The translations under genes and the position numbers were made by a program. This document shows, piece by piece, positions 3,483-22,263 of a stretch of 26,245 nucleotides of DNA (the stretch's first letter is position 1; every line of letters begins with the position of its first letter). The stretch spans positions 89,354-115,598 of the forward strand of contig JBHLMP010000003.1 in the NCBI GenBank assembly GCA_048938025.1. Direction: 5' to 3'. Origin of the DNA: Promethearchaeota archaeon (GTDB lineage Archaea > Asgardarchaeota > Lokiarchaeia > Sigyniarchaeales > SOKP01). Under the pieces are notes generated by a model, which saw nothing but the letters and a program-made list of their open reading frames with translations, was not told the DNA's origin and ran no database searches.

Positions 3483-3499
3483 GTACATTTTGAGAAACA

Positions 3500-5324: not shown

Positions 5325-5339
5325 AAATTCCAACTTAAG

Positions 5340-6752
5340 TTGACTATTATGAATGAAATTCAAATCATAGGATTAAGAGAGATTCCATTAATTAAGAAGG
5401 GGGATGATATTGCTAAAATTATTCTCGAAGCCTTAAAGAAAAATAATCTAGAGCTTCTGAATGGTGATATATTCGTTATTGCTCAAACAATAATTACAAA
5501 GAGCAATGGAAGGATTAGAAATCTTAAGAAAGTAACACCAAGCTCGAGAGCTATTGAAATTCATCAAAAGCTTTTGTCAAAAGCAATTAATCTTGACCAT
5601 CCTGTAAAATCCCCTGAATTAATTCAATTAATACTGGAAGAATCAAATGAGATTTTAAAAATTGAGCATGTTTTAATTACAGAAACGAAACATGGATTTA
5701 TTTGTGCAAATGCTGGAATAGATAAATCTAATATTGAAGGGAAAGAGAATGTGGGATTATTACCTAATAATCCAGATGAAGATGCTAAAAAAATTAAAGT
5801 AAATCTTAAAAAATTTACAAATAAAGATGTTGCTATAATAATTTCTGATTCATTTGGGAGACCGTTTAGAGTTGGAGCAGTTGGAGTAGCTTTAGGTCTT
5901 TCTGGAATAAATCCAATATTAGATAAACGTGGAAAAAAGGATTTATTTGATTATGAACTTCAAAGTACTGTAATAGGACATGTTGATAGTCTTGCTTCTG
6001 CTGCACAATTAGTCATGGGTGAAACTGATGAAGGAATTCCTATAGTATTAATTAGAGGATATGATTTTGAGTTAAAAGAAAATGTGTCAATAAAAACCAT
6101 TTTAAGGGATAAAAATCTTGATGTATTTCGAGCAGGTAATAGTGAATATATTAAAAAAATTCTGAAAAACCGGAGGAGTTATAAGTTCGATTTTGATTCC
6201 AGAAAAGTTGATAAAAAAATTATTGAAGAATGTATTGAACTTGCCAGATGGGCACCAAGTGCTCATAATGGACAATATTGGCGTTATATAATATTAAATA
6301 AAGGAAATTTACGAAATAGATTAATTGATAAAATAAATGAAAAGTTGAGATTTGATTTAGAAAAAGATGGCAGAACAGAATCTTTTATTAGAAATAAGAT
6401 TAAAAAAACAAGAAATAATTTCTTAGAAGCGCCAATTTTAATTCTATTATGCTTAGATTCGAGAGATTTAGAAAAATATCCAGACGAAGAGCGATCTCAG
6501 AATGAATTTATTTTAGGAATCCAAAGTGTTAGTTGTTCAGCAATCTATTTACTAATTGCTTTTGAAGTAGAAAAATTAGCTGCTTGTTGGTATTGTGCTC
6601 CTTTATTCACTAAAGAAATTATAAAAGAGGTTTTAAAACTTCCTGAATCTTATATTCCAATGGCATTTTTTACTGTTGGATATCCTTTAAAGCCAATTAA
6701 GGCACCACCACGTAAAAACTTAAATGATATTATTTTTAAATTAAAAGCATAA
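5340..6752 (+). CDS. cofE: Coenzyme F420-0:gamma-glutamyl ligase (CofE) fused to a C-terminal nitroreductase domain (FbiB-like); start may be ATG at 5349
   Basis: N-terminal CofE motifs ICANAGIDKSN, IISDSFGRPFRVG, AAQLVMGETDEGIPIVLIRG; C-terminal FMN-nitroreductase motifs NRRSYK, ARWAPSAHNGQYWRY, ACWYCAPLF, VGYP. Confidence 0.93.
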   Translation: MTIMNEIQIIGLREIPLIKKGDDIAKIILEALKKNNLELLNGDIFVIAQTIITKSNGRIRNLKKVTPSSRAIEIHQKLLSKAINLDHPVKSPELIQLILEESNEILKIEHVLITETKHGFICANAGIDKSNIEGKENVGLLPNNPDEDAKKIKVNLKKFTNKDVAIIISDSFGRPFRVGAVGVALGLSGINPILDKRGKKDLFDYELQSTVIGHVDSLASAAQLVMGETDEGIPIVLIRGYDFELKENVSIKTILRDKNLDVFRAGNSEYIKKILKNRRSYKFDFDSRKVDKKIIEECIELARWAPSAHNGQYWRYIILNKGNLRNRLIDKINEKLRFDLEKDGRTESFIRNKIKKTRNNFLEAPILILLCLDSRDLEKYPDEERSQNEFILGIQSVSCSAIYLLIAFEVEKLAACWYCAPLFTKEIIKEVLKLPESYIPMAFFTVGYPLKPIKAPPRKNLNDIIFKLKA

Positions 6753-6765
6753 GCAAAAGGATAAT

Positions 6766-7695
6766 ATGTCAGAAGATTATTATGTTGTATTAGCTGGAGG
6801 AGTGGGAGCAGCAAAATTTATTGAAGGGTTAGTTAATGTTGTAAAACCAGAATTGCTCAAAATCATTGTCAATACTGGAGATGATATTGAATTGTTTGGT
6901 TTAAAAATCTGTCCAGACTTGGATATAATTACCTATACATTAGCTAATTTGATAGATAAAGAAAAAGGTTGGGGTTTTGTTGATGAAACATACAATTGCT
7001 TAAGAATATTGAAAACATATTATGAGACAGGCTGGTTTAATGCAGGTGACAAAGATTTAGCAACGCATATTTATCGCACTGATTTATTTACTCGAGGTTA
7101 TACTAAAGCTCAGATTACTGAAATGATTTGCAAGAGGTTAGGAGTGAAATCTCAACTAATTCCTATGTGTAATGAAACTGTAGAGACTTACATTGGTACT
7201 CATGATGGTGAGATTCATTTTGAAGAATATTACATAAAAGAACGCTGTGAACCAGAAGTTTTTGATGTAAAATTCAAGGGAATTGAAAATGCTAAACCAG
7301 TTGATGGTGTATTGGACTATATTAAAAATGCTAGGAAAATTTTGATTTGTCCGTCAAATCCAATTGTATCTATAGGGACAATACTTCAAGTTCCAAAATT
7401 AAAAGAAATGCTAATGAAAAAGAAAAGTAAAGTTTTTGCGATAAGTCCGATAATTGAAGGCGCTGCTGTTAAAGGACCAGCAGCCCCTTTAATGCAAGCA
7501 TTAGGTTTAGAAGTTTCTTGTGTTGGTGTTGCAACTTTTTATAAGGAATGTATAGAGCATTTCATAATTGACAACAAAGATTGTAAATTAAAACCAAGAA
7601 TTGAAGAATTGGGGATAAATACTTATTGTTATGATACTTTAATGATAAACTTAAAGAAAAAAAGAAATTTAGCTCAATTTATCATTAATTTATAA
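6766..7695 (+). CDS. cofD: 2-phospho-L-lactate/phosphoenolpyruvate transferase (CofD/FbiA)
   Basis: LAGGVGAAKF, IVNTGDD, ICPDLD, GDKDLATH, HFEEY, CPSNPIVSIGTIL, ISPII, KGPA motifs; adjacent to cofE. Confidence 0.95.
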   Translation: MSEDYYVVLAGGVGAAKFIEGLVNVVKPELLKIIVNTGDDIELFGLKICPDLDIITYTLANLIDKEKGWGFVDETYNCLRILKTYYETGWFNAGDKDLATHIYRTDLFTRGYTKAQITEMICKRLGVKSQLIPMCNETVETYIGTHDGEIHFEEYYIKERCEPEVFDVKFKGIENAKPVDGVLDYIKNARKILICPSNPIVSIGTILQVPKLKEMLMKKKSKVFAISPIIEGAAVKGPAAPLMQALGLEVSCVGVATFYKECIEHFIIDNKDCKLKPRIEELGINTYCYDTLMINLKKKRNLAQFIINL

Positions 7696-7706
7696 AATAA
7701 AGATAT

Positions 7707-9125
7707 TTAAGCTGTCTCTTCTACGATTTCTTCTACTTCTTCTTTTTTAACATAATCTCCTACAGATGCTAGAATCTCTTTTATACGCCCTTCTTGTTGC
7801 AGTCGAATTATCAAATTCCTGTGTTTAATGTAAGAAATTATCTGAGAAATTACAGGAAAAAGTAGCATTATCGGAAGTAATAAAATTATAATAGATTCTG
7901 GCGAATACATAGCAACACTTTCAGTTATAGCAGGAGGTAAATTAAAAACATTAAGTAAGAACCATCTAGGATGAATAATTATATAACTTATAAAAATTAA
8001 TAAAATAACGCGATAACTAAAATTAATCACTGTTGAATATGCTAAATTTCCTATACGTGGTGCAGAAGAACTTGCCGTTAATGTATTTTGTGCTTCAGGA
8101 TCTTCTTGAAAAAGACGATCTATATATCTACCAAGCCTTCTTGTTTTAGATGCGGCTGTTACCAATTTTTTTTCTTCTTCTTCCAACCTCCTCCTTTCTA
8201 TCATTTCTTTTACAAATGAAAATCGTTTACTTGTTCTTGCGAAAAATTTTCCTACTGATATTCCTTCTTTTTGTCCAGTTTCGATTTCTTCTCTTCTTTT
8301 TTTAGCTTCTTCCCTGATTTTATCTACATTTGCTGTAATATAAGTTGATTCTCTTCTTAATATATTTAGTTGGGCTTCTAATCTATCACTTCTTTGTAAT
8401 GAAGGTTTAGTAACAGTTTCTGCATAATTTGCCTGAAATGAGAGTTCTAAATATATGTAAGCTATAATCCCAAACACAGTAACTGGACTTGCCATGAATG
8501 CAGCAAAATCGTCAATTGGTATAGTATTTAATGTATCATCAATTGGGTTTGCTAAATTTTCAAAGAAAGGGAGTGTTTCCAATCCTAACAACTTCATCAT
8601 ATCATTAAACTCAAACACCATAAATGGAATAACAATCATAAGGACTATTGAGCCGATAGTATAAAGTGTGTATTTTGGATCACTTTTAAAAAAGGATCTT
8701 ATAGCATATATTATTGCTATTGCGAATAAAATTTGGAAAGAAAATAAATAGACATTATTTAATAATCCAGCAATTTCATCCCCTATAAGATCAGGGATTT
8801 GATCAATATCAGGACTAATACCGCCTGGAAATCTAAACCACAAACCTAAATAATTTTGAAAAAAGGTACTAATAAAATCGAATAAATATCTATTTGAACC
8901 AGCTGTTACAAAAGCGCAAAAAATAGCAATCAAAAAAGCAACCGCATAAAAAAGATATGTAAAAACATCAACTAATGAACCAATAACAGCAAAAAAAACG
9001 AAGTCTCCATCGTTATTATATACAACTACATCAAAATGGAATATTGATATCACAAATATAGTTAACATCCATGAGAGAACTAATGCACCTATGACTTTTA
9101 ATATTAATATATAATATCTTGACAT
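7707..9125 (-). CDS. Uncharacterised multi-pass membrane protein with a central charged/coiled-coil region
   Basis: 472-aa ORF with about five N-terminal hydrophobic helices, an E/K/R-rich stretch, then two more hydrophobic helices; ATG 3 nt after the DUF58 stop, so apparently the last gene of the MoxR locus. Confidence 0.8.
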   Translation of the reverse strand: MSRYYILILKVIGALVLSWMLTIFVISIFHFDVVVYNNDGDFVFFAVIGSLVDVFTYLFYAVAFLIAIFCAFVTAGSNRYLFDFISTFFQNYLGLWFRFPGGISPDIDQIPDLIGDEIAGLLNNVYLFSFQILFAIAIIYAIRSFFKSDPKYTLYTIGSIVLMIVIPFMVFEFNDMMKLLGLETLPFFENLANPIDDTLNTIPIDDFAAFMASPVTVFGIIAYIYLELSFQANYAETVTKPSLQRSDRLEAQLNILRRESTYITANVDKIREEAKKRREEIETGQKEGISVGKFFARTSKRFSFVKEMIERRRLEEEEKKLVTAASKTRRLGRYIDRLFQEDPEAQNTLTASSSAPRIGNLAYSTVINFSYRVILLIFISYIIIHPRWFLLNVFNLPPAITESVAMYSPESIIILLLPIMLLFPVISQIISYIKHRNLIIRLQQEGRIKEILASVGDYVKKEEVEEIVEETA

Positions 9126-9128
9126 CTT

Positions 9129-10457
9129 CTAATACGCTCTTCCCTTTTTCTTTGCTTCCATATAGTTGTTCAATACTTCACCCATCATATTATCGGGTGC
9201 AACCGTTATTATATTAACCCTTAAATTTCTTAATTCTTGTTTTATTTTAAGGATATGTTCCATCATTTCCTCACTTATCGCTTCTGCTAAAGCTTTATCA
9301 GTTGAAGATAAATCGATTTCATGTATTTCAAACCAAGGACTAAATGGATTAATAATAATAATTGTATGGTTAAAAGGAATTAACTTTTTTATTGCTTGGG
9401 TAACTTCTTTATCAGCTGCTTCTAAATCAGAGATAATAAAGATTAAGCTACGCTTTTGGAAACGTCTTGTGAAAAAATCAATTGCTTCAACAATTCTACA
9501 TTTTCCCTCTGGTTTCACTCGAGCAACAAAATCTAATACTTGATAAAAATGGTCTTCACCACTTCCAGGTTTTAAAAACTTTAGATTCTTTTTATCAGAA
9601 AAAGTAAAAACGCCTACACTATCTCGACGCGTCAGGGCTACTTTTGTTAATAACATACAAGCTCTTATGGCAAATTCAAATTTTGTGTTTTCAATAGCTC
9701 CTCCGGCCATAGAACTTGAAGAATCTACTAAAATCATAACAGTGATGTCTCTTTCTGATTCAAACTCCTTTACAATTAATGTTTGGGCGCGAGCACTTGC
9801 CTTCCAGTCAATTAGTCTAAATTGATCACCAAAAGCATATTTTCTCATACCATAAAACTCTGAACCAAGGCCTTTTTGTTTAGATCTTTGGAGACCATAA
9901 TTCAATTGTAAAGATCTTTTTGAACCTAGTATCTCAATTCTTTTAATATCTTCATAAGGAGGATAGACAAGTATATCTGTAACACTATTAGGAACAATTC
10001 TTTCGAGTGAATTAAAACCTAAGCGGTCTTTAACTATTATTGACAATGGTCCCAATGCATATTCACCCCTAACTTTTGGTTCAAGAACATAAGAGAACCT
10101 TACAGTAGCTCTAGGTCCTATTCTCGTTGATATGAAATTTTCACCTAAAATTAGTCTAAAAAGTTGTGGGTTAAAATTGTCTCTAATTTCAAGATAATCA
10201 AAGCTACTTCGACCAATATTCTCTATAACCACTTTAACATGGACAAAATCATCTTTGAATACTTTTTCTTTCTCGAGTTCTCTATGTACCCTCAATTCTT
10301 CCACATTCATCTTATAGTGAAATATTGGTAAACTAATAATGGTACTAAAGAGCAAGAGAATGGCGAAATATATTAGGAAATAATTAACAAACGCAAATCC
10401 TGCTGTAAGAAAAAAAACAGCAAATAAAACTAAACTCCTGCCTTTTCCTCCTAAGAT
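9129..10457 (-). CDS. DUF58-domain vWA protein (MoxR partner) with N-terminal transmembrane hairpin; start uncertain (proposed ATC at 10457; track uses 10355)
   Basis: GSEFYGMRKYAFGDQFRLIDWKASAR, LIVKEFE, MIDAS DSSSSM, KFEFA, IISDL. The frame is open upstream of 10355 to 10469, encoding ILGGKGRSLVLFAVFFLTAGFAFVNYFLIYFAILLLF. Confidence 0.88.
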   Translation of the reverse strand: MLGGKGRSLVLFAVFFLTAGFAFVNYFLIYFAILLLFSTIISLPIFHYKMNVEELRVHRELEKEKVFKDDFVHVKVVIENIGRSSFDYLEIRDNFNPQLFRLILGENFISTRIGPRATVRFSYVLEPKVRGEYALGPLSIIVKDRLGFNSLERIVPNSVTDILVYPPYEDIKRIEILGSKRSLQLNYGLQRSKQKGLGSEFYGMRKYAFGDQFRLIDWKASARAQTLIVKEFESERDITVMILVDSSSSMAGGAIENTKFEFAIRACMLLTKVALTRRDSVGVFTFSDKKNLKFLKPGSGEDHFYQVLDFVARVKPEGKCRIVEAIDFFTRRFQKRSLIFIISDLEAADKEVTQAIKKLIPFNHTIIIINPFSPWFEIHEIDLSSTDKALAEAISEEMMEHILKIKQELRNLRVNIITVAPDNMMGEVLNNYMEAKKKGRAY

Positions 10458-10524
10458 TTTAACGCCACCTTACTCATAATAATTAACTTAATTGAATATA
10501 ACCCCATAAAATATGGAAAAAAAT

Positions 10525-11502
10525 TTATATCGGTACTGGAATATCTTCGATAATTCCTTTAATCACTGCATTTACATCAAGACCTTCTAATTCAGCTTCA
10601 GGTTTCAATAAAATCCTATGATTTAATGCTGGGACCGTTAATGCACGTACATCGTCTGGTGTTACATAAGTACGCCCTAAAATTGCAGCCCGTGCCTTTG
10701 CACATTTCATTAAGGTGAGTCCAGCTCTAGGACCGCATCCTAACGCAATTTGCGGATGATTTCGAGTTTTTAATATCACATCTCTAATATATTTTAGTAT
10801 TCTATCATCTATGTAAACCATATTTACTAACTTTTGAGCAGCAAGTATTTCTTCTGCGTTAGTAATTTTATCTACTGATGGTGATTCACCAGAAATTTGT
10901 CTTCTCATAATGTCCACTTCTTCATCTTGTTCAGGGTAATCTAGCCAGAGTTTGAATAAAAATCGATCAACTTGTGCTTCTGGTAATGGGTAAGTTCCCT
11001 CCATTTCAACGGGATTTTCAGTTGCTATAACTATAAAAGGTTTTACAAGTTCAAGGGTTTCTCCCTCTATGGTTACTTGTCGTTCAGCCATAGCCTCGAG
11101 TAGAGCTGCTTGTGTTTTAGGAGCACTCCGATTAATTTCATCTGCAAGGACAACGTTTGCGAAAATAGGGCCCTTTTGCAGAACAAATGTACCTTCTTCT
11201 TGTGAGAAAATTTTAGTGCCTGTGATATCAGCTGGTAGTAAATCAGGGGTGAATTGAACCCTCCTAAATGAAATTCCAAGAGTTTTTGCAAAAGTCTTTG
11301 CCATTACAGTTTTTCCGAGACCTGGTACACCTTCTAATAGAACATGTCCATTTACAAGAAGCGAAATGAATAACTGTTGTAGAATATCACCATACCCTAC
11401 AATAACTCGGCTTACTTCACTTAATACCTCCTGTGCTATTTCTCTTATAGGAGTAATATCAATTTCTTCATGTTCATAATATTTTGCCTTGTCGACTTCC
11501 AC
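10525..11502 (-). CDS. moxR: MoxR-family AAA+ ATPase
   Basis: Walker A GVPGLGKT, RVQFTPDLLPADITG, Walker B LADEINRSAPKTQAALLEAM, NPVEMEGTYPLPEAQVDRF; GTG start 8 nt behind an AAGGTG SD. Confidence 0.97.
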   Translation of the reverse strand: MEVDKAKYYEHEEIDITPIREIAQEVLSEVSRVIVGYGDILQQLFISLLVNGHVLLEGVPGLGKTVMAKTFAKTLGISFRRVQFTPDLLPADITGTKIFSQEEGTFVLQKGPIFANVVLADEINRSAPKTQAALLEAMAERQVTIEGETLELVKPFIVIATENPVEMEGTYPLPEAQVDRFLFKLWLDYPEQDEEVDIMRRQISGESPSVDKITNAEEILAAQKLVNMVYIDDRILKYIRDVILKTRNHPQIALGCGPRAGLTLMKCAKARAAILGRTYVTPDDVRALTVPALNHRILLKPEAELEGLDVNAVIKGIIEDIPVPI

Positions 11503-11573
11503 TTTTTATACACCTTTTTTTTTTCGAATTTTTTATTTTTGATTTAATCATTTAATTTAATACGTAAACGTGA

Positions 11574-13307
11574 CTAGATATTATTTACAACCCATTCCAT
11601 TTCAAAGAACAGGTTTTCAAAATCTTGTTCATTTCTTATTTTTTCTTTACCTTCTTTTATCAATAAAATCTTATCCATAAATCTATCTATTCTTCTAACT
11701 TTTGTTTTACTAATTCCTAGTTCTTTAGCGACAACCATATCTACTACATTTTCTTTTGTGATTTTTTGACTCTTTAATAGGCTATTTAATTTCCTTTCCA
11801 ATCTCCTATAGAGTAGAGTTAATGCTTTTCCATAGTTACTTTTCTCTCTATACCATTCGATTTTTTGGGCAAAAAAAGAAGAGGTTCTAAATTTCGCTAT
11901 TTCTTCTTCCTTTTCTGCTTTTTCTGTTTTCTTTTTCTGTTCTTTCTCATCTTTTTTTGGTAGATATCTTTTTAAGGTATAATAAGCTAAGATTGGGTAA
12001 ATCCATGCTGTAATTGGGTTAGTCGATAAATGTATTACATATTGCATTATAAACCCGTAAATACCCGCAGATGTTAGATCTCTTGAATATTCTGGACGGA
12101 TGTGAGCTTCATCAAACACTATAATCCAGTCATCTTTATTACCACCTGAATTTATGTATGTTAACCACTCAATAACATTTATACCAAATTGACGGTTATC
12201 ATAAAGTTCAATTAACTCATTATTAAATAGACTAGCATCTGCAGATACGAATATCCTGATATTTTGATATTCTTTTGCCATAAATACTGGTTGAGGATAA
12301 ATTCCTAAAGGTAAATTATTAAGTGGAAAACTAGGGATCATACCACTCATAAAACCTAGATTAAGAACATCTGTGTCATTATCAAATTGATCATTATCAT
12401 TCTTATCGATAAAACTTTGTGCACTTGAATAACCGATATCGTCCCACCCAAAATAACTTATTAAAGGTCCCCCAGCTGCAGAAGTTGCTTGCCCTAAGAC
12501 AACTTGCATACCAGAAAAAACCGTTGGATGAGGATTAAAAGTTGTAATAACTGGATATTCGGCAGTTTTATAATATGAATAATGATCTCTTAAAACGCCA
12601 TCTGGAAATATAGTTAATGGAAAACTTTTATCTACTTCTTGAGTTAAAAAGCTTGCAATTAATATTTCCCATAATAGAGTACTTGTAGAACCATGATCAT
12701 GGCATATTAATAAAGAATTACTGCTATTGAAGAATTTAATAAAATATGGAATTTCGAATATTGGATCATAATATTGATTAGGACCCATCAAAATCAGGAG
12801 AATTCTTTTATCCAACCGCTCAGTAGCACTAAGGCTTGATTGTACCGTCATTATTTCATAACCTTGACCTTCTATAGTATCTCTAAAATCTGAGCACCCA
12901 TTCCAATCTGTATTGTATATTGAGAAATGTTGATTATTTTTACCTTGATCAATTATTGGGGCAAGTAAAGGAACAAATGCAAAAATAAATATTATCAAAA
13001 AAAGGGCTTGTTTGTACATTGATCCTTTTTTAACTTGTTTCCGGGATTGGGTTTGGCGAGTCTTGTAGACTGAAACATTTCTAATGAATATAATAAAAGC
13101 AATACCTAAAAATAATGCCCCGATATAACATAATAAAGGGATATAGCTAACCAAAACTGGTAGATCTCCAGGGTTATGGTTCTGAAAAGAGACTATAAAT
13201 TCACTAATTACAATTCCAAATACAATTAAGTATATTGTGAAAAACACAAAAATTATTGCTTTTGATATATTAATGCTTTTCTCAGAAGCTTTACCTGCTT
13301 TAACCAT
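11574..13307 (-). CDS. DUF4350-like membrane protein (3 N-terminal TMs, large soluble domain, TM, C-terminal helical domain)
   Basis: FSIYNTDWNGCSDF, DASLFNNELI and IVFDEAH motifs typical of archaeal DUF4350 proteins; lies immediately upstream of moxR, the usual context. Confidence 0.75.
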   Translation of the reverse strand: MVKAGKASEKSINISKAIIFVFFTIYLIVFGIVISEFIVSFQNHNPGDLPVLVSYIPLLCYIGALFLGIAFIIFIRNVSVYKTRQTQSRKQVKKGSMYKQALFLIIFIFAFVPLLAPIIDQGKNNQHFSIYNTDWNGCSDFRDTIEGQGYEIMTVQSSLSATERLDKRILLILMGPNQYYDPIFEIPYFIKFFNSSNSLLICHDHGSTSTLLWEILIASFLTQEVDKSFPLTIFPDGVLRDHYSYYKTAEYPVITTFNPHPTVFSGMQVVLGQATSAAGGPLISYFGWDDIGYSSAQSFIDKNDNDQFDNDTDVLNLGFMSGMIPSFPLNNLPLGIYPQPVFMAKEYQNIRIFVSADASLFNNELIELYDNRQFGINVIEWLTYINSGGNKDDWIIVFDEAHIRPEYSRDLTSAGIYGFIMQYVIHLSTNPITAWIYPILAYYTLKRYLPKKDEKEQKKKTEKAEKEEEIAKFRTSSFFAQKIEWYREKSNYGKALTLLYRRLERKLNSLLKSQKITKENVVDMVVAKELGISKTKVRRIDRFMDKILLIKEGKEKIRNEQDFENLFFEMEWVVNNI

Positions 13308-13362
13308 TTTGATTTTGTTTATTATTTATTTTTAATGTCAATAAAAATGATAGTCTATATAT

Positions 13363-13743
13363 TTACAACTTAGGGAGAGAGACTGACTTTCCATAAATTT
13401 CGTTGTATAAATTCGAGAATAATTCAATTGTATAATTTAATTCGTTGTTAGTTGGCTCAATACCTCCATAGATGATGTCTTCAATCTTTTTAATAAAGGG
13501 ATAAACGGATTCTGGTTTCAATTTCTTTTCTAATTCATTTACACACGAAATTGCGAATTCACGAATAGTTTGATGGGCTTGTCTAGGTTTTTTAAATTTG
13601 ATATTGATAATATCATCATAGATAAGATAAATGTAAGCAATTGCCTCTTTAGGTCTATTAGTTTCAACCAAAACCTTCACGTTATCAAATCTTTGTTTTA
13701 CGTTTATTTCTGGTTCTGGTTGCTTCTTTTTCTTCTTTGCCAT
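13363..13743 (-). CDS. Stand-alone small helical protein, DUF4129-like; paralog of the C-terminal domain of the upstream gene
   Basis: PRQAHQTIREFA...FIKKIEDIIYG resembles the DUF4129 pattern (R..xxT.RE......F....YG) and aligns by eye with the C-terminus of 13873..15495. Confidence 0.7.
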   Translation of the reverse strand: MAKKKKKQPEPEINVKQRFDNVKVLVETNRPKEAIAYIYLIYDDIINIKFKKPRQAHQTIREFAISCVNELEKKLKPESVYPFIKKIEDIIYGGIEPTNNELNYTIELFSNLYNEIYGKSVSLPKL

Positions 13744-13872
13744 TTTTTCATACCATTGTCTTTTTTTTTAATAATTTATTTAATAATTTATTTTGAGTTT
13801 ATAATTTTTTGCAGTTCATTTTAATTTTTATTTTTAATATTTTTATTATAGATTTGAATTTGTAGATTTTAT

Positions 13873-15495
13873 TTAAAAATTTAATACGAAATTATAACCA
13901 GTTAATTGGAAATAAATCGGAGAAAATAATTCACATGTGTTATAAAAATCTTTTTCTGTTATTTTAAAAGGTTTTGCATAGATCACTTCTTCAATTTTCT
14001 GGATAAATGGATATACAGTAGCAGGGGTTAACTTTAATTCTTTAACAGACACTATAGCAAAATCTCTAATTGTTTCATTATCTTTTCTTGCTCTTCCATA
14101 TTTCGCATTCACTAAATCCATATAAATTGCATTAAACAAATAAGATAAAGATTCTTCCAATCTTCCTGAATCTTTAAGAATTTTAAGGTTTTTAATTCTT
14201 GAGATTAGAGGAACATTTACCACCCGGGCTTCTTCTTCTTGTTTTCTATAATAGCGCAATGCATAAACAATAAGACCTGCTATAATAATACCTAATATCG
14301 GAAAAAAAATTACTGAGAAAATTAAAAATGGGGGTAATTCAGCACCTCTATTTGAAGGTAAAGCAACATCTACAAATATATATGTTGGGGTAGAGCTAAT
14401 ATCTTTTCCTGCATAATTAACTAATTGAACTTGAAGAGGAAAGGTCCCATTGCTACCTGTTATATCAAAAGTAGATGTAAAGGACCCATCAGCTCTAGTT
14501 TGAACGGTATCAACTGTATTTCCATCATAAAGAATCTCAACATCTCTATTATTTATTTTGAGGGAACTATCAGTTAATGAGGATAATTGCCCTGTAATTG
14601 TATATCGTGCTCCCACGTATGTACTAAGGTCGATATTCAAATCCCAGAAAACATCTGAGAAAGTTTTTATGGGAGGACTAAAACTTTCGGAGTAACTGAT
14701 AAAAGGAACATTTGAAAAATTTAACTTTAAAGTCAGTTGACTTAATAAAGTATTAGGTACTTGAATATCTGAAAGATCTCCGGAAGAATCAGTCCAGAAT
14801 GACCCTTGATCAATTACATTAAATCCGTCAAGCCAGAAATAATAAACTTCTTCAAAAGAGAGACCAATTCCACTACCATCTCTTAAATATCCATCAATTA
14901 CTAGATACTCTTCTATTAGTTTTGGAGCCAGATCATCATAAGATACAATATCAAAATCCGAACTAGTATTTACGTATATAGTATAATAATCAGGGTTTTC
15001 TATAACGCCGCCAGGAGGAATTGTTACGTAATTTATTGGAATAGCTTTAAGTTCATGAGAACTATATATATCCAGAGATGGATCAATTGTATAATCAATA
15101 GTAAATCTTCCATTAGGATTGGTAAAATCATTATAACTTGGATAATTCATACCATCTACTTGTATTATCACTTCTATATCTGATTTATTTGTGCCATCAG
15201 ACTTACTATAAATTCTGCCTTCAATAGAAATGTCAGTATTATGTGTAAATCGTGAGTTATTGACTTCTAACGGATTTGTTAGATCTAATGTAGCCCATTC
15301 CCAGGATAATCTAGGTTCCTTTTCATTTAATAGATGACTCTTATCATCATTATAATGAAAGTAAGTAAAAAAACTAATGTTAATCAAAATAAGTAAGGTC
15401 AAAAATGTTATTAGAAAGAGGTTTTTTCTTGAGTGAAATATTCTATATTTCCGTGTTATTTTTGAATTTAATTTATTCATAGTTTTAAGTTTCAC
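13873..15495 (-). CDS. Membrane-anchored protein: N-terminal TM, about three Ig/beta-sandwich-like domains, TM, C-terminal DUF4129-like domain (start GTG 15495 or ATG 15480)
   Basis: Two hydrophobic helices; repeated motifs ISIEGRI/LVIDGYL/YTITGQL and TNPNGRF/TDSSGDL/TRADGSF; C-terminal RARKDNETIRDFA...FIQKIEEVIYA. Confidence 0.75.
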   Translation of the reverse strand: MKLKTMNKLNSKITRKYRIFHSRKNLFLITFLTLLILINISFFTYFHYNDDKSHLLNEKEPRLSWEWATLDLTNPLEVNNSRFTHNTDISIEGRIYSKSDGTNKSDIEVIIQVDGMNYPSYNDFTNPNGRFTIDYTIDPSLDIYSSHELKAIPINYVTIPPGGVIENPDYYTIYVNTSSDFDIVSYDDLAPKLIEEYLVIDGYLRDGSGIGLSFEEVYYFWLDGFNVIDQGSFWTDSSGDLSDIQVPNTLLSQLTLKLNFSNVPFISYSESFSPPIKTFSDVFWDLNIDLSTYVGARYTITGQLSSLTDSSLKINNRDVEILYDGNTVDTVQTRADGSFTSTFDITGSNGTFPLQVQLVNYAGKDISSTPTYIFVDVALPSNRGAELPPFLIFSVIFFPILGIIIAGLIVYALRYYRKQEEEARVVNVPLISRIKNLKILKDSGRLEESLSYLFNAIYMDLVNAKYGRARKDNETIRDFAIVSVKELKLTPATVYPFIQKIEEVIYAKPFKITEKDFYNTCELFSPIYFQLTGYNFVLNF

Positions 15496-15511
15496 CTATT
15501 CCTTATTAATA

Positions 15512-18500
15512 TTAAGGTGGCCTAAAAACTTGTTGTTCAATTATTTGTACATATGTACCATCGGGTCCAAAATTGATAATATCCTCAGGGTAAAAATAAA
15601 CATAAACTACAGTATCATCTTCCCACGCACCAACCGTAAACGTTACATTAAAGAAACCAAATGCATCTGTTTGGAATGAAAGAGCAGTTTCTAAAATGTT
15701 ACCATTTCCATCTCTAACAGTTGCATTTATATACATGTTCTCTATAGGAGTTCCATTATCCCAGTATAAATTACCATATACCCATAATTCATCATTAAAA
15801 TACCAGTCCTCCTTATCATATAGAGTGTCATAAAATCCAATGATATAAGTGCCTGCTATAATTTTTATTGAGATATCCGAACTACTATTATGAACCATAT
15901 AATCTGATAATGATATTCCCGCCTCTTGTATGCCTCCATTAAACTCAATTCTTATATAATAGTCTCCTTGAGGACAAGAAATATCAATAAAGTTGAAGAA
16001 TTGATAATAACCAACATTATCAGTTATATCTGTTTGAGATCCAATTAGATAATATGAAGTGACGTCACTATAAGTGCTATTTAATAATGTAATTTCGAGT
16101 ACTAAACCTCTTAAACCTTCTCCACTTTCTAGCACTGTACCATCAACAATAAAACTGTCAAGGTTCCTTATAACTGAATTCTTATCTATTGAACCAAATA
16201 TATTGACCGTTCCATTTATAATTACATATGTGGTATTAGAAGTAAGAGTGGCATCCCACTCCACTTTTATTTTATGTAATCCCACATGCCAATTTGTTGT
16301 AGTGTTAATGAATTCATGATATCCGTAATCAGCAGATCCATATGTGTAAGATCCAATTACTATACTTGTATATACATCTGTGAGAATGACTGTTCCATTT
16401 CCTGGACTTCCACCTTGCTCAATAATAACCGTAAGATTAATCTGTTCTCCAGGATTGTAGCGTTTAGGAAGATGAATATCATCATAGAAAGAAAGAGTTG
16501 GAGTTCCATCAACAAATAGGTATATATTTATATCATCCGGATCCATAACTTTTAAGTCATAAACGCAAGCAACATTACTGGTAAAATTCGTAATGAAATC
16601 AAGATTAAAGTAGTATGGATAACTACTCCCTAAATAATCGAACCATCCATTAAACCATACTTCTAATGTGTAATTCCTTGCAGGAGTAGATTCAGAAACC
16701 TGATAAGTAAGATCAAATTCTCCTGTTTCGTCGAGCACTAAAGATCCAGACACTAAGTTAAGTAAGTATGAGACATCAGTTGGGCCGTCAAATAAGTGAA
16801 CTGTGATTTCACCAAATTTGATTGGATTCCCATTATCGGAATCATTTAAAAATCCATGGATTATAAAATTTCTATTGATCGTCCCACTTCTAAAAATTTC
16901 AGGAGGTTGAGGACAAACATCCAGAGCAATAATGATTGGTGCGTCCAATATAAAGTATGAATAATGATAATTATTTTTCCATTTAGCATAAATCAAATGA
17001 GGTCCTGCTAAAGAATTCAAACCAATCGGGTATGAAGCATTAGCGTAGCCTGATATTGTCTGTACAGAATCAATAGGGGTTCCTTGAGTAACATCATAGA
17101 AATCTACCCATTCGCCATTAGGTATAGGTGTGCTACCATATTGAATAAGTACAGTTAGATTAAGAGCATCATAACGATTTATTATTGGATTGTTGATGTC
17201 ATAAGAGGGATACCCATTTATCCAAAAATCGAAATATAAGATGGCAGGAGTTTCTACTTTCAATTCATCGACCAAAACAATGGAAGAACTTAACGAAACT
17301 AAATTAAATATATATGGATATGGATAACTCGTTAGATCAATTGTTCCATAGAAATCCATTCTTAATGTGTAGTTACCAGTCGGTGTACTAGGATCTACTT
17401 CAAATGTTAAATCAAAAGTGCCATTTTGAAGTGTTTGATAAGGGTAACTTTCAGATGGAACTAAATAAGAAGAATTATCATAACCATCACTTATTAATCT
17501 TAAAGTAACTTCAGAGTAGCGTAATGGTCTAGAACTATTAATAGCGTCAGTAATATTTCCTATGATGTTAAATTTTGTATTTGTATTTCCACCACCAGTA
17601 CGATTAATTACTTGAGGTGTTGGACCAGAAGTAATATGAATAGTAGGAGATTCATCCACAATAAAGTAAGAATAATTTTCTTGAATTCCAAGTCTTGCGA
17701 ATAATAAATTAGGACCTGATATACAATAATCAAGTACATCGTAAGTAATAAAAGCAGTACCATTCTCATCCGAAAAAGCACTACCGATTTTAATACCACC
17801 TCGAGAATAATCATAAAAGAATACTTCTTTATCTGGCTTTGGACCAAAATTTTCTAACATAACCTTAGCAGTGAGATCAAGAGTTGAACCTCTTGAAACG
17901 GAAGGAGCATAAGGGTTATCTGCTGGAGTATTATCAATATAGAACCAAACAGACAAAGCTTTAGTAATGTTAAGACCCATTCTATTACTTGAATTTGTTA
18001 TAAATCCTACTGGAAATGGTATTCCATATAAAATCCAAGTTCCATTAAAATCAACTCGAATTTCATATTGACCTGATGGAACAATGGGATTAATAGTTAG
18101 AGTTGTATCAAATTCACCATTATTCCCTGTAATTTGTGAAGGGGGAGTAAATGCAAATGGTTCTTCTATTGAAGTAACTTTTTGGAGTAATACAAAATTA
18201 ACCTCTGCATCCTTGACTCGTTTTCCATTTATTGGATCATAGACATAACCTTGGACGTAAGTTTCATCAGGAATAGGGTCAGATCGATTAACTTCAGTTG
18301 GATTTACATTTGTCAAATCAATTGCTATATCTCCTAATATTACAGTGACAGTGTAATTGAAATTGAAGAAATCATACCTAGCTTCTATAATGTGGGGACC
18401 TACAACATATGAATCATTTAATTGTACTGAAATTTTTGTTATACCACTAACATCTGTATCATTAACTCCTAGGATTTGGTTAGATGTTATATCAGTAAAG

Positions 18501-19975
18501 GTAATTGTTCTGTTCTCAACTGAAGCTGTAAGGGAAGATAAGGTAGCAGTTAGTTTCATTTCATCGGTTCTATTATAGAATAATTTATCAGAAGTAACAG
18601 TGATATTAAATGTATCTCCTGTAATTGGACTTCCACCAGTTCCATAGCTATCAAAAAGGATATCCATCTGAACCCATTCACCATCTCCAAATATATTAAA
18701 TGGAACAAAAATTTCTGCCCAATTATATAAATTTTTGTACTTGATAGCAAAAGTTTCTTCGCCAAAAGGAGGATTCTCATTATAATCAGTAAAACTTTCA
18801 ATCCATCTACTGTTAAAACCACTTACAAATCTGCTTGCTACACCAAAAGCACGAGAAAATATGCTAAACGCAGTAGCAAAATCTGGCCATAAACCTTGTT
18901 GTTGTTCGCAGAACCAATCTACTGCATCTCGACCTGGATCTGGTGAAGGAGTATAGTTTAAATAAAAATTAGTTTGGAGATAATTCCTAATTTTATTAGC
19001 AATTACAAATGCATTATCATTTTGATTTATTATAGTGTTATTCAAAATATCATAATGATATTTAAAATTAAGGTTATTTGTCAAATATGTCTGTAAATTT
19101 GGCGGAATTTGTGTATACATAGTCAATAAATCTAAATATTCTGGTGTGGGGTTTGTAACCGTATCTGCCAGACTATTTATCTCATCATTTGAACGTAAAT
19201 CTAAACCAAATAAGTTATATGTCATATTTACAGCATCATTAGATGAAAAGTAGAGATCTGCTTTTGAAACATTAAACAAATTTTTGTATAATGTAGTATC
19301 AGTTAACGTTGAAACACTTAAATTATTTAATGCATCGAAACTCTCTTTTATTATAAACGGAATTGGAAACAGGGAAGGAATAGCAATCGAGTTTCTCTCG
19401 CTTGCATTAGGAGATAATAGCATTTTTATTTTTAATAGATCTAAAAACCAATATTGTGAAGAATAATTATTAAAAGTATAGAAATCATCAACTTGCATAG
19501 GAACTGAAGTTAACCAATCAGTTCCAGTATATTGATCATAGCATTCATATTTCCATAGTTTTTCATCCATTTCATTAAAATTGGAATATCCATAAACTCT
19601 AAAAACTTCCATTTCAGCAGCCGCAGAGGCTAAAAGCGCCATAAGGCCCTCTGAAAATTGACTTAAATCTAAATCATCTGAATTACCATCAAGAAGATCA
19701 GATAACATATCAAGCAAATCATCCAAGTCTTCTGGGGGTATATCTGAAAAATTGAGATCTTCCCAGGGAAAGTAGGGTGTCAAAGGTGGTTCATTTACTT
19801 CATCTTTATCGGATACTGAATCGTCAAAATCATATCGTTGAGTTCCAAATAATAAATTTAATAAAACTGTAGAGAAGGCAAACATCGAGATTAACAAAAT
19901 AGCAATAATGACAATACCCAATACTCTTTTCTTGTCGATCTTCTTGCCTGAGAGATCCTCTCCTATTACTGACAT
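15512..19975 (-). CDS. Large membrane-anchored transglutaminase-fold protein (predicted inactive) with about nine C-terminal Ig-like domains
   Basis: N-terminal TM; DUF3488-like LWKYECYDQYTGTDW; TGase core AVDWFCEQQQGLWPDFATAFSIFSRAFGVASRFVSGF...YNWAEIF...GEWVQMD; beta-rich tandem repeats with many N-x-S/T sequons. Confidence 0.82.
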   Translation of the reverse strand: MSVIGEDLSGKKIDKKRVLGIVIIAILLISMFAFSTVLLNLLFGTQRYDFDDSVSDKDEVNEPPLTPYFPWEDLNFSDIPPEDLDDLLDMLSDLLDGNSDDLDLSQFSEGLMALLASAAAEMEVFRVYGYSNFNEMDEKLWKYECYDQYTGTDWLTSVPMQVDDFYTFNNYSSQYWFLDLLKIKMLLSPNASERNSIAIPSLFPIPFIIKESFDALNNLSVSTLTDTTLYKNLFNVSKADLYFSSNDAVNMTYNLFGLDLRSNDEINSLADTVTNPTPEYLDLLTMYTQIPPNLQTYLTNNLNFKYHYDILNNTIINQNDNAFVIANKIRNYLQTNFYLNYTPSPDPGRDAVDWFCEQQQGLWPDFATAFSIFSRAFGVASRFVSGFNSRWIESFTDYNENPPFGEETFAIKYKNLYNWAEIFVPFNIFGDGEWVQMDILFDSYGTGGSPITGDTFNITVTSDKLFYNRTDEMKLTATLSSLTASVENRTITFTDITSNQILGVNDTDVSGITKISVQLNDSYVVGPHIIEARYDFFNFNYTVTVILGDIAIDLTNVNPTEVNRSDPIPDETYVQGYVYDPINGKRVKDAEVNFVLLQKVTSIEEPFAFTPPSQITGNNGEFDTTLTINPIVPSGQYEIRVDFNGTWILYGIPFPVGFITNSSNRMGLNITKALSVWFYIDNTPADNPYAPSVSRGSTLDLTAKVMLENFGPKPDKEVFFYDYSRGGIKIGSAFSDENGTAFITYDVLDYCISGPNLLFARLGIQENYSYFIVDESPTIHITSGPTPQVINRTGGGNTNTKFNIIGNITDAINSSRPLRYSEVTLRLISDGYDNSSYLVPSESYPYQTLQNGTFDLTFEVDPSTPTGNYTLRMDFYGTIDLTSYPYPYIFNLVSLSSSIVLVDELKVETPAILYFDFWINGYPSYDINNPIINRYDALNLTVLIQYGSTPIPNGEWVDFYDVTQGTPIDSVQTISGYANASYPIGLNSLAGPHLIYAKWKNNYHYSYFILDAPIIIALDVCPQPPEIFRSGTINRNFIIHGFLNDSDNGNPIKFGEITVHLFDGPTDVSYLLNLVSGSLVLDETGEFDLTYQVSESTPARNYTLEVWFNGWFDYLGSSYPYYFNLDFITNFTSNVACVYDLKVMDPDDINIYLFVDGTPTLSFYDDIHLPKRYNPGEQINLTVIIEQGGSPGNGTVILTDVYTSIVIGSYTYGSADYGYHEFINTTTNWHVGLHKIKVEWDATLTSNTTYVIINGTVNIFGSIDKNSVIRNLDSFIVDGTVLESGEGLRGLVLEITLLNSTYSDVTSYYLIGSQTDITDNVGYYQFFNFIDISCPQGDYYIRIEFNGGIQEAGISLSDYMVHNSSSDISIKIIAGTYIIGFYDTLYDKEDWYFNDELWVYGNLYWDNGTPIENMYINATVRDGNGNILETALSFQTDAFGFFNVTFTVGAWEDDTVVYVYFYPEDIINFGPDGTYVQIIEQQVFRPP
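15515..18610 (-). repeat. Protein-level tandem repeat: four roughly 230-aa two-domain (A+B) Ig-like units plus a final domain
   Basis: A-domain motifs GPHIIEAR / GPNLLFAR / GPHLIYAK / GLHKIKVE alternate with B-domain motifs GQYEIRVDFNG / GNYTLRMDFYG / RNYTLEVWFNG / GDYYIRIEFNG. Diverged at DNA level. Confidence 0.8.
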
Positions 19976-20237: not shown

Positions 20238-21056
20238 CTAGAATTCAAAACCACACTTAGTACAGACGTATTTTTTTGCGTAAGTCGGTTTAGGAATGTA
20301 GCTTATAATTCTTGTTTTATCTTCTACCTCCTTCACAGCAAAGCCTGACGCTCCACAGCTAGGACACACTCTTCTTCCTGTTCCTACTGGCATAGCAGGA
20401 CTAGGCGTTGGTGTTGTAGAGGGAGATATAGAAGGAGTTGTTCCATAACTGGGTGTAGGAGATTGAGAGGTTATTCCTTGCGCTAAACTAGATGGCATTA
20501 CAGCTTTAGGTTCTTTTAACTCTTCAATACGTTTCTCTTTATAAGCTAATTCTTGTTGCAAATTTGTAATTTGACCCTGTAAAGGACCAATTTGTTGTTG
20601 AAGCATTGAATTATGTTGTTGTAATTCTTGAACTTGTTGTTGTAATCCTGGAATTTGAGCTCTTAATTGGGCAGTTTCATTATTTAATTGATTAACTTGA
20701 TTTTGATAAGCTTCTGCTGAAGTTTGAAGTGATTGGAGTTGATTACTTAATCGAGTTACTTGATTATTTTTTTCAGCAAGTTGAGCTCTTAAGTTAGAAA
20801 TTTCAGCACTTTTTTCATTAATTTGACCATACAATTGACTGATTGTGGAATCTTTTTCTTGAACTTGGCTTAATGCAATATTATAATCATCTTGTGAAGG
20901 ACCAACTGGAATAGTGGGTGCTTGCTCAAAAGAGGGGGGAGGAGCTTCTAATGGAGGGGGTGTTAATGGAGGAAATGCTGAAGGGGGTGGCATTGATGGA
21001 ATGCGTGGAGGACGACGTTCGTCTTCTTCATCATCTCTATCATTTTCATATGACAT
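20238..21056 (-). CDS. Proline-rich, coiled-coil protein with C-terminal Cys4 zinc ribbon
   Basis: Acidic N-terminus, PPPSAFPPLTPPPLEAPPP, about 120 aa of Q/L heptads, S/T/P linker, CPSCG...CTKCGFEF; AGAGGA SD 5 nt before the ATG. Confidence 0.85.
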   Translation of the reverse strand: MSYENDRDDEEDERRPPRIPSMPPPSAFPPLTPPPLEAPPPSFEQAPTIPVGPSQDDYNIALSQVQEKDSTISQLYGQINEKSAEISNLRAQLAEKNNQVTRLSNQLQSLQTSAEAYQNQVNQLNNETAQLRAQIPGLQQQVQELQQHNSMLQQQIGPLQGQITNLQQELAYKEKRIEELKEPKAVMPSSLAQGITSQSPTPSYGTTPSISPSTTPTPSPAMPVGTGRRVCPSCGASGFAVKEVEDKTRIISYIPKPTYAKKYVCTKCGFEF

Positions 21057-21168
21057 AATAATCCTCTATTTAAAATTCATTAATTTTTACTTGTTTTTGT
21101 AATTTAAATATGGTGTACGTGTTTATAAATTATAGCACAAATGGATTATAAAAAAGTTTTTAAAAATA

Positions 21169-22263
21169 TTAAAAACAATTCCAATAAGGATTTAACTTTT
21201 TTTTTATAGCAGGTATCAATTTTTCATTGATATAAGCTAATAATTCCCTGTTAGAGGTTCGAGATTCTTCTTGAATGAGACTCTCATCCTCATCATTAAG
21301 AACCTTAAGACAATTATATACTGCCCTTGCTTGTTTTTCAACCTCATACCCTCCTTCCAATGTTATTAATATTCTATCCTTTGAGTAGTCTTTTGCAATT
21401 TCTTTGATTCTTTTTAAATAATTTGCTGGACCTTGAATGGTCCATCCCATATTCGTTAATGTATCTGTCCAATGGGTATCAAATCCTGCGGATATAAGTA
21501 TAAATTCTGGTTTAAATTCTTTACATACTGGTGAGATTATTTCATCAAAAAATGTAATAATAATATCGTCAGCTGCTCTTGGTGGCATTGGATAATTAAT
21601 TATTTTACCTTCACCTTTCCCAGAGCCAATTTCACCTAAAAATCCACTCCCTGGATATAGTGTTCTTCCATCTTGATGAGAACTAAACATTACTACTTCA
21701 CCATTTTTTGAAGGACTGCCTTCATAGAATATATCTTGTGTACCATTTCCATGATGACAATCCCAATCTACTATTGCAATTCTCTTAAAACCCTTTTCTC
21801 TAATAAGATATTCTGTTGCGATAGCTACATTGTTAAAAATACAAAATCCAGCACATTTATAAGAATTTGAATGATGACCTGGGGGTCTAACTGCAGCAAA
21901 AGCATTTTTTATATTTCCTTCTAGAATTTCATCAGCAGCTTGAAGATTTCCCCCAACAGAATATAATGAGGCTTCGTAAGTTTTACCTGATACTGCAGTA
22001 TCCATATCAAGGTATTGAATATTATTTGTTTTTTCAGCTAAACGGCTCACCTCTTGAACTTCTCTAATTAAACCTTCTTCGTGTATATACTTAATTTGAT
22101 CTAAAGTTGCTTTTCTTGGTTTTATTAATTTAAAATTTGGGTCTTCAAGAACGTTCATTTCTTTTAAGAATTTCATAATCTCTATAAGTCTCATATGGCT
22201 TTCTACATGAGTACCAATTCGATGCTCCAGATAAATATCATCATAGATTATGCCTGTAGTCAA
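21169..22263 (-). CDS. Zn-dependent histone deacetylase-family protein (HDAC/AcuC/APAH superfamily)
   Basis: RPPGHH, GFCIFNNVA, DWDCHHGNGTQ, YPGSG, ISAGFD, LEGGY all intact; TTG start behind an AGGTGG SD. Confidence 0.95.
   Translation of the reverse strand: MTTGIIYDDIYLEHRIGTHVESHMRLIEIMKFLKEMNVLEDPNFKLIKPRKATLDQIKYIHEEGLIREVQEVSRLAEKTNNIQYLDMDTAVSGKTYEASLYSVGGNLQAADEILEGNIKNAFAAVRPPGHHSNSYKCAGFCIFNNVAIATEYLIREKGFKRIAIVDWDCHHGNGTQDIFYEGSPSKNGEVVMFSSHQDGRTLYPGSGFLGEIGSGKGEGKIINYPMPPRAADDIIITFFDEIISPVCKEFKPEFILISAGFDTHWTDTLTNMGWTIQGPANYLKRIKEIAKDYSKDRILITLEGGYEVEKQARAVYNCLKVLNDEDESLIQEESRTSNRELLAYINEKLIPAIKKKLNPYWNCF

Follow-up and report, generated by a model that had tools for sequence, protein, structure and literature searches.

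The stretch of DNA analysed here (the window) is 26,245 nucleotides (nt) in length and comes from a Promethearchaeota archaeon (GenBank assembly GCA_048938025.1, contig JBHLMP010000003.1, positions 89,354 to 115,598 of the forward strand), whose genome is 3.5 Mb in size with a completeness of 96.7%. Between positions 7707 and 19975 of the window, seven co-oriented open reading frames (ORFs), named g1 to g7, are located on the minus strand. They encode a giant protein with a transglutaminase-like head (g1), a membrane protein with a cytoplasmic DUF4129 tail (g2), a small free DUF4129 protein (g3), a DUF4350 protein (g4), a MoxR-type ATPase (g5), a DUF58/vWA protein (g6) and a polytopic membrane protein (g7). 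The genes and their parts are as follows:

15512-19975, minus strand: g1, 1487 residues (aa)
18629-19072, minus strand: transglutaminase-like core of g1 (residues 302-449), triad Trp-Tyr-Asp
15770-18568, minus strand: stalk of g1, four tandem units of ~232 aa (residues 470-697, 700-933, 935-1165 and 1177-1402)
13873-15495, minus strand: g2, 540 aa
13876-14247, minus strand: DUF4129 domain of g2 (residues 417-540), predicted to be cytoplasmic
13363-13743, minus strand: g3, 126 aa
11574-13307, minus strand: g4, 577 aa
11577-11960, minus strand: predicted cytoplasmic tail of g4 (residues ~450-577), ending in the motif F..LFFEM.W
10525-11502, minus strand: g5, 325 aa
9129-10355, minus strand: g6, 408 aa from a TTG start; to 10457 (~442 aa) if it starts at an ATC codon
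7707-9125, minus strand: g7, 472 aa

The intergenic gaps are 16 nt (g1-g2), 129 nt (g2-g3), 55 nt (g3-g4), 71 nt (g4-g5) and 3 nt (g6-g7). An earlier note on this DNA (the original prediction) had claimed seven co-oriented genes with these sizes and gaps, and the ORF calls on the window matched it. Its gap of ~67 nt between g5 and g6 holds if g6 starts at the ATC codon at 10457; with canonical starts it does not, as the distance to the first ATG, GTG or TTG is 169 nt. Its assignments of MoxR, DUF58/vWA, DUF4350 and the transglutaminase fold are all past the Pfam cut-offs.

g1 has the layout of a type-II membrane protein. The hydrophobicity scan found a single hydrophobic segment, one transmembrane (TM) helix at residues 13-45; it is followed by an acidic linker, the transglutaminase-like head and the repeat stalk, leaving ~1440 residues outside. 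In the Pfam search, residues 314-438 matched Transglut_core (PF01841) with 45.3 bits (cut-off 23; E 1.2e-11), Big_3_5 (36.3, cut-off 35.5) and MG2 (33.8, cut-off 32.8) were both just over threshold, and Big_1 also matched in the stalk; g1 has no Pfam match to TgpA_N (DUF3488), the multi-helix membrane domain. A search of the PDB with the single g1 core sequence gave no match, so a profile built from nine Asgard cores was needed; its best match was TgpA (6g49, E 1.2e-7), and human TG2 and factor XIII came next.

In the profile alignment to 6g49 and TG2, the Trp, Tyr and Asp of the window align with Cys277, His335 and Asp358 of TG2, respectively, and hmmalign of 28 core domains from 26 giants, the window included, gave the same triad columns. 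The fold-defining positions of the core are invariant. The catalytic Cys is absent in 24 of the 26 giants; the Cys-His-Asp triad is kept only in two giants of two other families (L035 and L037), and the triad of the window's family is Trp/Tyr/Phe-Tyr-Asp. Judged by these residues, the transglutaminase of g1 is catalytically dead, and the degenerate active site read by the original prediction is thus anchored on two solved proteins. Because only two of the 26 giants keep Cys-His-Asp, predicted loss of catalysis is the rule among Asgard giants and no peculiarity of the window. That catalysis was lost and the module was kept points to a structural, non-enzymatic role of the transglutaminase fold, which most likely binds a ligand instead of catalysing. 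Some giants contain two transglutaminase-like domains (L035:7004-11716 and L030:6952-13818); the first domain of L035 is Cys-His-Asp and the second is Pro-His-Asp. L037 also keeps the full triad.

The state of the active site bears on one alternative, in which the cluster would be a chaperone of the kind of CoxD/E, NorQ/D and CbbQ/O that inserts a cofactor or activates an enzyme; the enzyme that it matures would be the transglutaminase. Several MoxR-vWA pairs do activate enzymes (PMC3893208), and TgpA of P. aeruginosa is active, essential and co-transcribed with two upstream genes (PMC3507681). However, as the nucleophile Cys is missing in 24 of the 26 Asgard giants, including that of the window, there would be no enzyme to activate, and we regard such a function as very improbable.

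The four units of the g1 stalk share 22-35% pairwise identity in the MAFFT alignment. Self-BLAST of g1 at 1e-3 detected no repeats; the units were found by motif and MAFFT. Each unit probably consists of two beta-sandwich, immunoglobulin (Ig)-like domains, and the very long Ig stalk that the original prediction had described was recovered in this form. The g1 ectodomain is enriched in predicted N-glycosylation sites: it contains 41 N-x-S/T sequons, compared to a mean of 18.0 in shuffled sequences, and none of 1000 shuffles reached 41. MoxR, DUF58 and g7 contain one sequon each, and g3 is likewise poor in sequons.

The hydrophobicity scan gave g2 an in-TM-out-TM-in layout, with one TM helix at residues 24-47, an ectodomain at residues 48-383, a second TM helix at residues 384-416 and the cytoplasmic tail. 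Its Pfam matches are sub-threshold and Ig-like only (Big_13, E 0.0015). g3 is soluble, with a poly-lysine N-terminus, and Pfam and NCBIfam searches assigned the g3 of the window to no family. We found 466 g3 homologues; among the 120 matches listed, the identity is 77-100% and none has a Pfam family. When orthologues were searched instead, Pfam DUF4129 (PF13559) matched 7/8 for g3 (E 1.9e-6 to 0.097) and 3/8 for the g2 tail (best 9.4e-6), two of these matches being above the curated cut-off, and the giant of locus L039 gave a DUF4129 match at 4.6e-13. In hhalign, the g3 family and the g2 tails were paired with 99.95% probability (E 1.2e-37). These orthologue matches and the hhalign result together argue for DUF4129 membership of g3 and the g2 tail, and g3 and the g2 tail are, on this profile evidence, paralogues. 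In a comparison of 34 DUF4129 domains, T59, R61 and E88 (g3 numbering) are conserved best, with E88 near-invariant (32/34). The free g3 is soluble in the class to which the window belongs; in three other loci it carries its own N-terminal TM helix (L032:7667-8167, L045:7131-7574 and L051:12510-12986).

g4 matched Pfam DUF4350 with 30.8 bits (cut-off 30.4), covering positions 2-52 of the profile only. Its orthologues matched DUF4350 in 13/13 cases (best 1.3e-20), the GldG-type family ABC_transp_aux in 9/13 and IFT52_GIFT in 2/13. The TM scan places three TM helices at the N-terminus of g4, followed by the DUF4350 ectodomain, a weakly hydrophobic C-terminal segment and the conserved cytoplasmic tail. 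The layout to be expected of DUF4350/arCOG01314 proteins is a signal peptide, an extensive external domain and one TM helix at the C-terminus. In the g4 of the window the C-terminal segment is below the scan threshold; most other Asgard forms have one N-terminal and one C-terminal hydrophobic segment. Compared by hhalign, the g4 tail matched the g3 family with 85.7% probability (E 5.5e-6 over 93 columns) and the g2 tails with 92.6% (E 4.6e-7), and the control comparison of g3 and g7 gave 0.13%; Pfam DUF4129 matched none of six g4 tails. The g4 tail is probably a third, remote DUF4129-like copy. Up to three DUF4129-like modules had been counted in the original prediction: two of them, g3 and the g2 tail, are secure, and the third is probable by hhalign.

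g5 is a cytoplasmic MoxR-type AAA+ ATPase whose gene adjoins the DUF58/vWA gene g6. It matched AAA_3 (PF07726) over the full profile with 216 bits (1.5e-64) and AAA_lid_2 (PF17863) at 1.5e-24. By the standard definitions of these motifs, Walker A (GVPGLGKT) and Walker B (ADEINR) can be read in its translation. One T7 run (10515-10524, minus strand) is located directly after the MoxR stop codon. In one Asgard genome, a second MoxR-DUF58 pair together with a 260-aa ORF without Pfam match is located just upstream of the main cluster (L033:718-3840).

g6 contains an Ig-like domain and a vWA domain. It matched DUF58 (PF01882) with 117 bits (8.1e-34) and VWA_2 (PF13519) at 1.1e-11, and the DUF58 gene is single copy in the genome of the window. 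The MIDAS-type DxSxS motif is DSSSS at residues 211-215; in 20 orthologues, D211 and D310 are invariant and S213 nearly so. Upstream of the TTG at 10355 the g6 frame is open for 38 codons, in agreement with a 446-codon open frame in the whole-genome ORF scan, and this upstream part encodes a two-helix membrane hairpin. The same N-terminal hairpin is present in the g6 orthologues, and the ATC at 10457 aligns with the ATG, GTG or TTG starts ('MLGGKGRS') of orthologues from neighbouring genera. Within 10355-10472 (minus strand) the window has no ATG, GTG or TTG at the orthologue start, and loci of the same genus likewise lack a canonical start there. Initiation of g6 may be non-canonical; alternatively, this site may be a trap for annotation by which the membrane hairpin is lost.

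By the TM scan, g7 has about five TM helices in its N-terminal part, then a charged region placed in the cytoplasm (residues ~235-355) and finally a C-terminal TM hairpin, in line with the extra multi-pass membrane subunit that the original prediction had noticed. It has no Pfam or NCBIfam family, and none of 20 distant members of the g7 family has a Pfam family either. The motifs YLE..FQ..Y, PS.ER and TLTA..S.P are invariant in 14 orthologues; the best-kept parts of the protein are the juxtamembrane YLE..FQ..Y....PS.ER, TLTA..S.P and the C-terminal hairpin. With the single g7 sequence, matches were found in 57 of 61 related genomes. The 14-sequence profile reached 266 of 301 genomes of the phylum, 86 of 90 high-quality genomes and 59 of 70 genera; among 1.84 billion representatives it matched only 135 clusters. 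The nearest ESM Atlas clusters are from Promethearchaeota and have no Pfam family, and among ten distant g7-like proteins that were looked up, the two named ones are Asgard proteins. By its profile, g7 represents a family without earlier description that is near-universal in Promethearchaeota, and Asgard-restricted in a survey that covered Promethearchaeota loci. The degenerate transglutaminase, the long stalk and the extra membrane subunit had been tagged as unusual in the original prediction. They turned out to be the Asgard norm: 24 of 26 giants are without the Cys, giants of 1045-2377 aa are typical and g7 is near-universal.

Such a distribution is at odds with a ternary MoxR-vWA system that acts against viruses or in conflict. 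A link between MoxR-vWA systems and biological conflict has been described (PMC12067865), and the Pfam family bpMoxR matches g5 at 2.2e-9. However, in PADLOC none of the seven proteins matched any system, with weak P-loop matches of g5 only, and defence islands are patchy, whereas this cluster is single-copy, syntenic and present in 266 of the 301 genomes of the phylum. A role of this kind is extremely improbable.

g7 and DUF58 are the tightest pair of the cluster: they directly adjoin each other in 33 of the 34 loci of the phylum-level set, which was collected around g7 matches and annotated with profiles and Pfam. This pairing, together with the polytopic nature of g7, could be taken as a sign of a dedicated secretion or export system, in which g7, g4 and the DUF58 hairpin would form the conduit, MoxR would be the energiser and the giant would be the cargo. 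A 'novel secretion system' was indeed predicted from the arCOG01314 neighbourhood, which holds DUF4350, MoxR, vWA and Ig-like membrane proteins (PMC5898192), and the GldG-type ABC_transp_aux matches of the g4 ectodomain in 9/13 orthologues also fit. On the other side, the giant has an ordinary N-terminal TM helix or signal-anchor, and a second TM helix in its fused forms, for which the general insertion machinery could suffice; the Pfam and NCBIfam scans of the cluster proteins found no translocase ATPase or channel family, and MoxR proteins are known as remodelling chaperones, not as translocases (PMC3893208). We consider export an unlikely function, albeit one to be taken seriously.

The neighbourhood was surveyed at two levels. 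The close-relative set contains 80 loci found with the DUF58 alignment, all from Promethearchaeota or Promethearchaeia. All seven genes are present in order in 44 of them and 32 more are collinear until the end of the contig or locus; the remaining four deviate (L063, L068, L080 and L105). In the phylum-level set, the giant, DUF4350, MoxR, DUF58 and g7 are collinear in 28/34 loci, 19 of which also contain g3, and the MoxR-DUF58 order is kept in 28/34. The joint conservation in related genomes on which the original prediction had staked its case is therefore borne out, and the counts (44/80 plus 32; 28/34) rule out a chance neighbourhood. The seven genes form a real, strongly conserved cluster.

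Outside the taxonomic order to which the window belongs, the giant is one protein, with an N-terminal and a C-terminal TM helix, that matches the g1, transglutaminase-core and g2 profiles; in the giants of other lineages, the g2 profile matches the C-terminal parts. The giant of L030 combines Transglut_core, a weak TgpA_N match and DUF4129, and a weak TgpA_N match is also present in L024. The Asgard giants span 1045-2377 aa. As the fused giants match all three profiles, g1 and g2 are, on this evidence, the split version of one ancestral giant that would have comprised a TM helix, a head, an Ig-like stalk, a second TM helix and a cytoplasmic DUF4129 domain.

Within the genus of the window, the protein identity is 39-47% for g1, 44-47% for g2, 59-66% for g7, 61-66% for g4, 79-85% for g3, 85-88% for DUF58 and 88% for MoxR; proteins on the outside have changed most and those on the inside least. 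Fast-evolving ectodomains above conserved cytoplasmic modules would also be expected of an outside-in sensor, in which a ligand outside the cell, or a partner cell, is bound by the non-catalytic head and its stalk and the DUF4129 tails signal to DUF58 and MoxR, and the bifidobacterial PFNA cluster has been proposed to sense host signals (PMC8430577). However, neither the cluster nor its neighbours include a kinase, a response regulator or any other gene for a signalling output, and the near-universal single-copy presence of the cluster fits housekeeping better. An outside-in sensor is thus improbable.

Taken together, we read the cluster, with slightly better than even confidence, as the Loki-type (Promethearchaeia) form of the TgpA/DUF4350-MoxR-DUF58 envelope module, working by the following putative mechanism. 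The hairpin of DUF58 and the polytopic g7 would form the membrane base, and on the cytoplasmic side the vWA domain of DUF58 would recruit MoxR as a hexamer. Helical modules of the DUF4129 type, which on this reading every subunit with an ectodomain carries (the g2 tail and probably the g4 tail) and which also exist as the free g3, would serve as cytoplasmic handles for vWA/MoxR; by using ATP, this pair would assemble the extracellular parts, insert them or switch their conformation. These parts would include the g2 ectodomain, the GldG-like ectodomain of g4 and the transglutaminase-fold head, which is non-catalytic and is carried by its stalk. Ligand binding without cross-linking is the most likely task of the head, and the product would be a surface structure with a housekeeping role in cells without an S-layer. 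The ATP-driven mechanism is proposed because MoxR-vWA pairs have an established role in maturation: MoxR ATPases act together with vWA/MIDAS cofactors as maturation chaperones (PMC3893208). The placement of the parts agrees with the translations, in which the cytoplasmic flanks are rich in lysine and arginine and MoxR, g3 and the body of DUF58 are placed in the cytoplasm. The topology of the original prediction, with the ATPase and its adaptor inside and the giant outside, agrees with both the hydrophobicity scans and the sequons.

Several observations weigh against this reading. The first group concerns the integrity of the cluster. Six of the 34 phylum-level loci contain only partial sets (L019, L023, L025, L028, L034 and L040). 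In three loci of a sister family (L020, L021 and L026), 2-7 kb of unrelated genes are located between MoxR and DUF58; because these genes split the pair, a single operon is not obligatory. The T7 run after the MoxR stop codon could be an archaeal terminator, and it is located at the same junction where the sister-family clusters split. In another genome (G006), g1-g3 stay together ~0.77 Mb from g4-g7, so that the genes are kept and the cluster is broken. The g7 profile had no match in several families, among them f18 (0/3), f21 (0/5), f22 (0/5) and f25 (0/7). In one genome without a g7 match (G056), the DUF58 gene is cut by the contig end; two f21 genomes have only weak vWA matches. The second group concerns individual proteins. 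The g2 tail and g3 of the window itself have no Pfam DUF4129 match even at E 5, and the link of the g4 tail to DUF4129 is one of profile comparison alone. The predicted g6 hairpin, which is part of the proposed membrane base, needs the non-canonical ATC start in the window. As for glycosylation, the shuffle comparison found no sequon enrichment in the g2 and g4 ectodomains, and in one Asgard glycoproteome glycosylation is infrequent and found mostly on one solute-binding protein (PMC11284389).

The inserts between MoxR and DUF58 in the sister family are located at L020:3852-11258, L021:11380-15748 and L026:13620-15667; they contain an opposite-strand DEAD-box helicase, a resolvase and TPR and LRR proteins.

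The wider module has already been predicted in print (PMC5898192), and our literature search found no paper describing this cluster in Asgard archaea. The original prediction had named prior characterisation of the full architecture among the points that would refute it; the wider module thus has a precedent, whereas the Asgard cluster was not found in the literature. The cluster is a lineage-specific variant of a known, widespread envelope module, and its marks are the split giant, the dead head, the DUF4129 handles and g7.

Among the known systems, TgpA (PA2873; 6g49) is the one whose solved structure the g1 core profile matched best. Like g1, it carries an outward-facing transglutaminase-like domain on a membrane protein, and its gene is co-transcribed with the upstream PA2875-PA2874 (PMC3507681). 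Different from g1, TgpA is 668-688 aa in size, contains six TM helices, an intact triad and no stalk, and its activity was measured (PMC3507681). The window instead has one TM helix, the Trp-Tyr-Asp triad, a repeat stalk of ~930 aa and the two-gene split, plus DUF4350, the free DUF4129 and g7. A C-terminal DUF4129 on the transglutaminase protein is present in the fused Asgard relatives, but not in the window, where it is located on the separate g2. PA2875 and PA2874 are probably MoxR and DUF58 genes. In its available part, the text of PMC3507681 never names either gene so.

The arCOG01314 'secretion or membrane remodeling complex' (Makarova, Galperin, Koonin 2015; PMC5898192) shares with our cluster DUF4350, the MoxR AAA+ ATPase, an Ig-vWA protein and both Ig-like and small polytopic membrane proteins. 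As far as its available text goes, that paper never mentions a transglutaminase, is without Asgard genomes, the dead head, the DUF4129 handles and the g7 family, and describes the vWA protein as 'likely secreted'; in our cluster that protein is placed in the cytoplasm behind a predicted TM hairpin. The PFNA cluster of bifidobacteria (pkb2, fn3, aaa-atp, duf58, tgm) shares the fixed order of a large secreted FN3 glycoprotein, MoxR (MRP), DUF58 and a transmembrane transglutaminase-like protein (PMC8430577, PMC12067865). It differs in that it is bacterial, is headed by a Ser/Thr kinase that phosphorylates MoxR and has its transglutaminase gene after DUF58; the available parts of these two sources report no DUF4350, DUF4129 or g7. 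MoxR-vWA pairs such as RavA-ViaA and the MRP type, for example RL3499, share a MoxR gene that adjoins the gene of a vWA/MIDAS cofactor. RL3499 of Rhizobium leguminosarum is reported to be important for membrane integrity and cell morphology (PMC3893208). These pairs have other targets, and in the available text none is described with a giant surface protein.

The genes on both flanks of the cluster are housekeeping genes unrelated to it. The downstream flank, on the plus strand, contains LeuRS, two radical-SAM proteins, an LplA-like ligase, a CofE-nitroreductase fusion and CofD. From 2481 to 7695 these genes form a compact plus-strand block (radical-SAM, LplA/LipB-type ligase, second radical-SAM, F420 gamma-glutamyl ligase-nitroreductase fusion and CofD) that runs towards g7 in a convergent arrangement, the two stop codons being 11 nt apart. 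The upstream flank contains a coiled-coil protein, a deacetylase, a Ras-family GTPase, MCM and a HEAT-repeat protein. The 272-aa coiled-coil protein and the histone-deacetylase-family gene (20238-22263) are on the same strand as the cluster; their position is kept in 7/7 full loci of the window's family that reach that far (L018, L029, L031 and L047-L050), and they are not at that position in the checked loci of other families. This may be plain synteny. The GTPase (22380-22910) is a 176-aa protein of the Ras/Roc family and adjoins MCM and the HEAT-repeat protein; small GTPases of this family are typical eukaryotic-signature genes of Asgard archaea. Rfam and tRNA scans gave no matches, and the tandem-repeat scan found trivial repeats only.

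What the cluster may mean for the organism is best seen against the cell surface of its cultured relatives. Cultured Lokiarchaea are bounded by a single membrane and lack an ordered S-layer; cryo-tomography revealed 'complex surface proteins' on them, which are thought to mediate cell-cell contacts relevant to eukaryogenesis (PMC9834061). A near-universal, single-copy cluster that encodes a sequon-rich giant and an internal ATPase is a candidate for such surface structures. It is a rather improbable extension of our reading that the cluster builds and controls these 'complex surface proteins' from inside in the manner of integrins. The binding head, coated with sugars, would be held up by the Ig-type stalk, the vWA/MIDAS adaptor and the MoxR motor would grip the cytoplasmic DUF4129 tails, the Asgard-specific g7 would be the base, and ATP would set adhesion or partner contact. 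In any case, the cluster gives defined candidates for the surface study of cultured Lokiarchaea, and it offers a tractable case for the general question of the role of MoxR-DUF58-transglutaminase modules.

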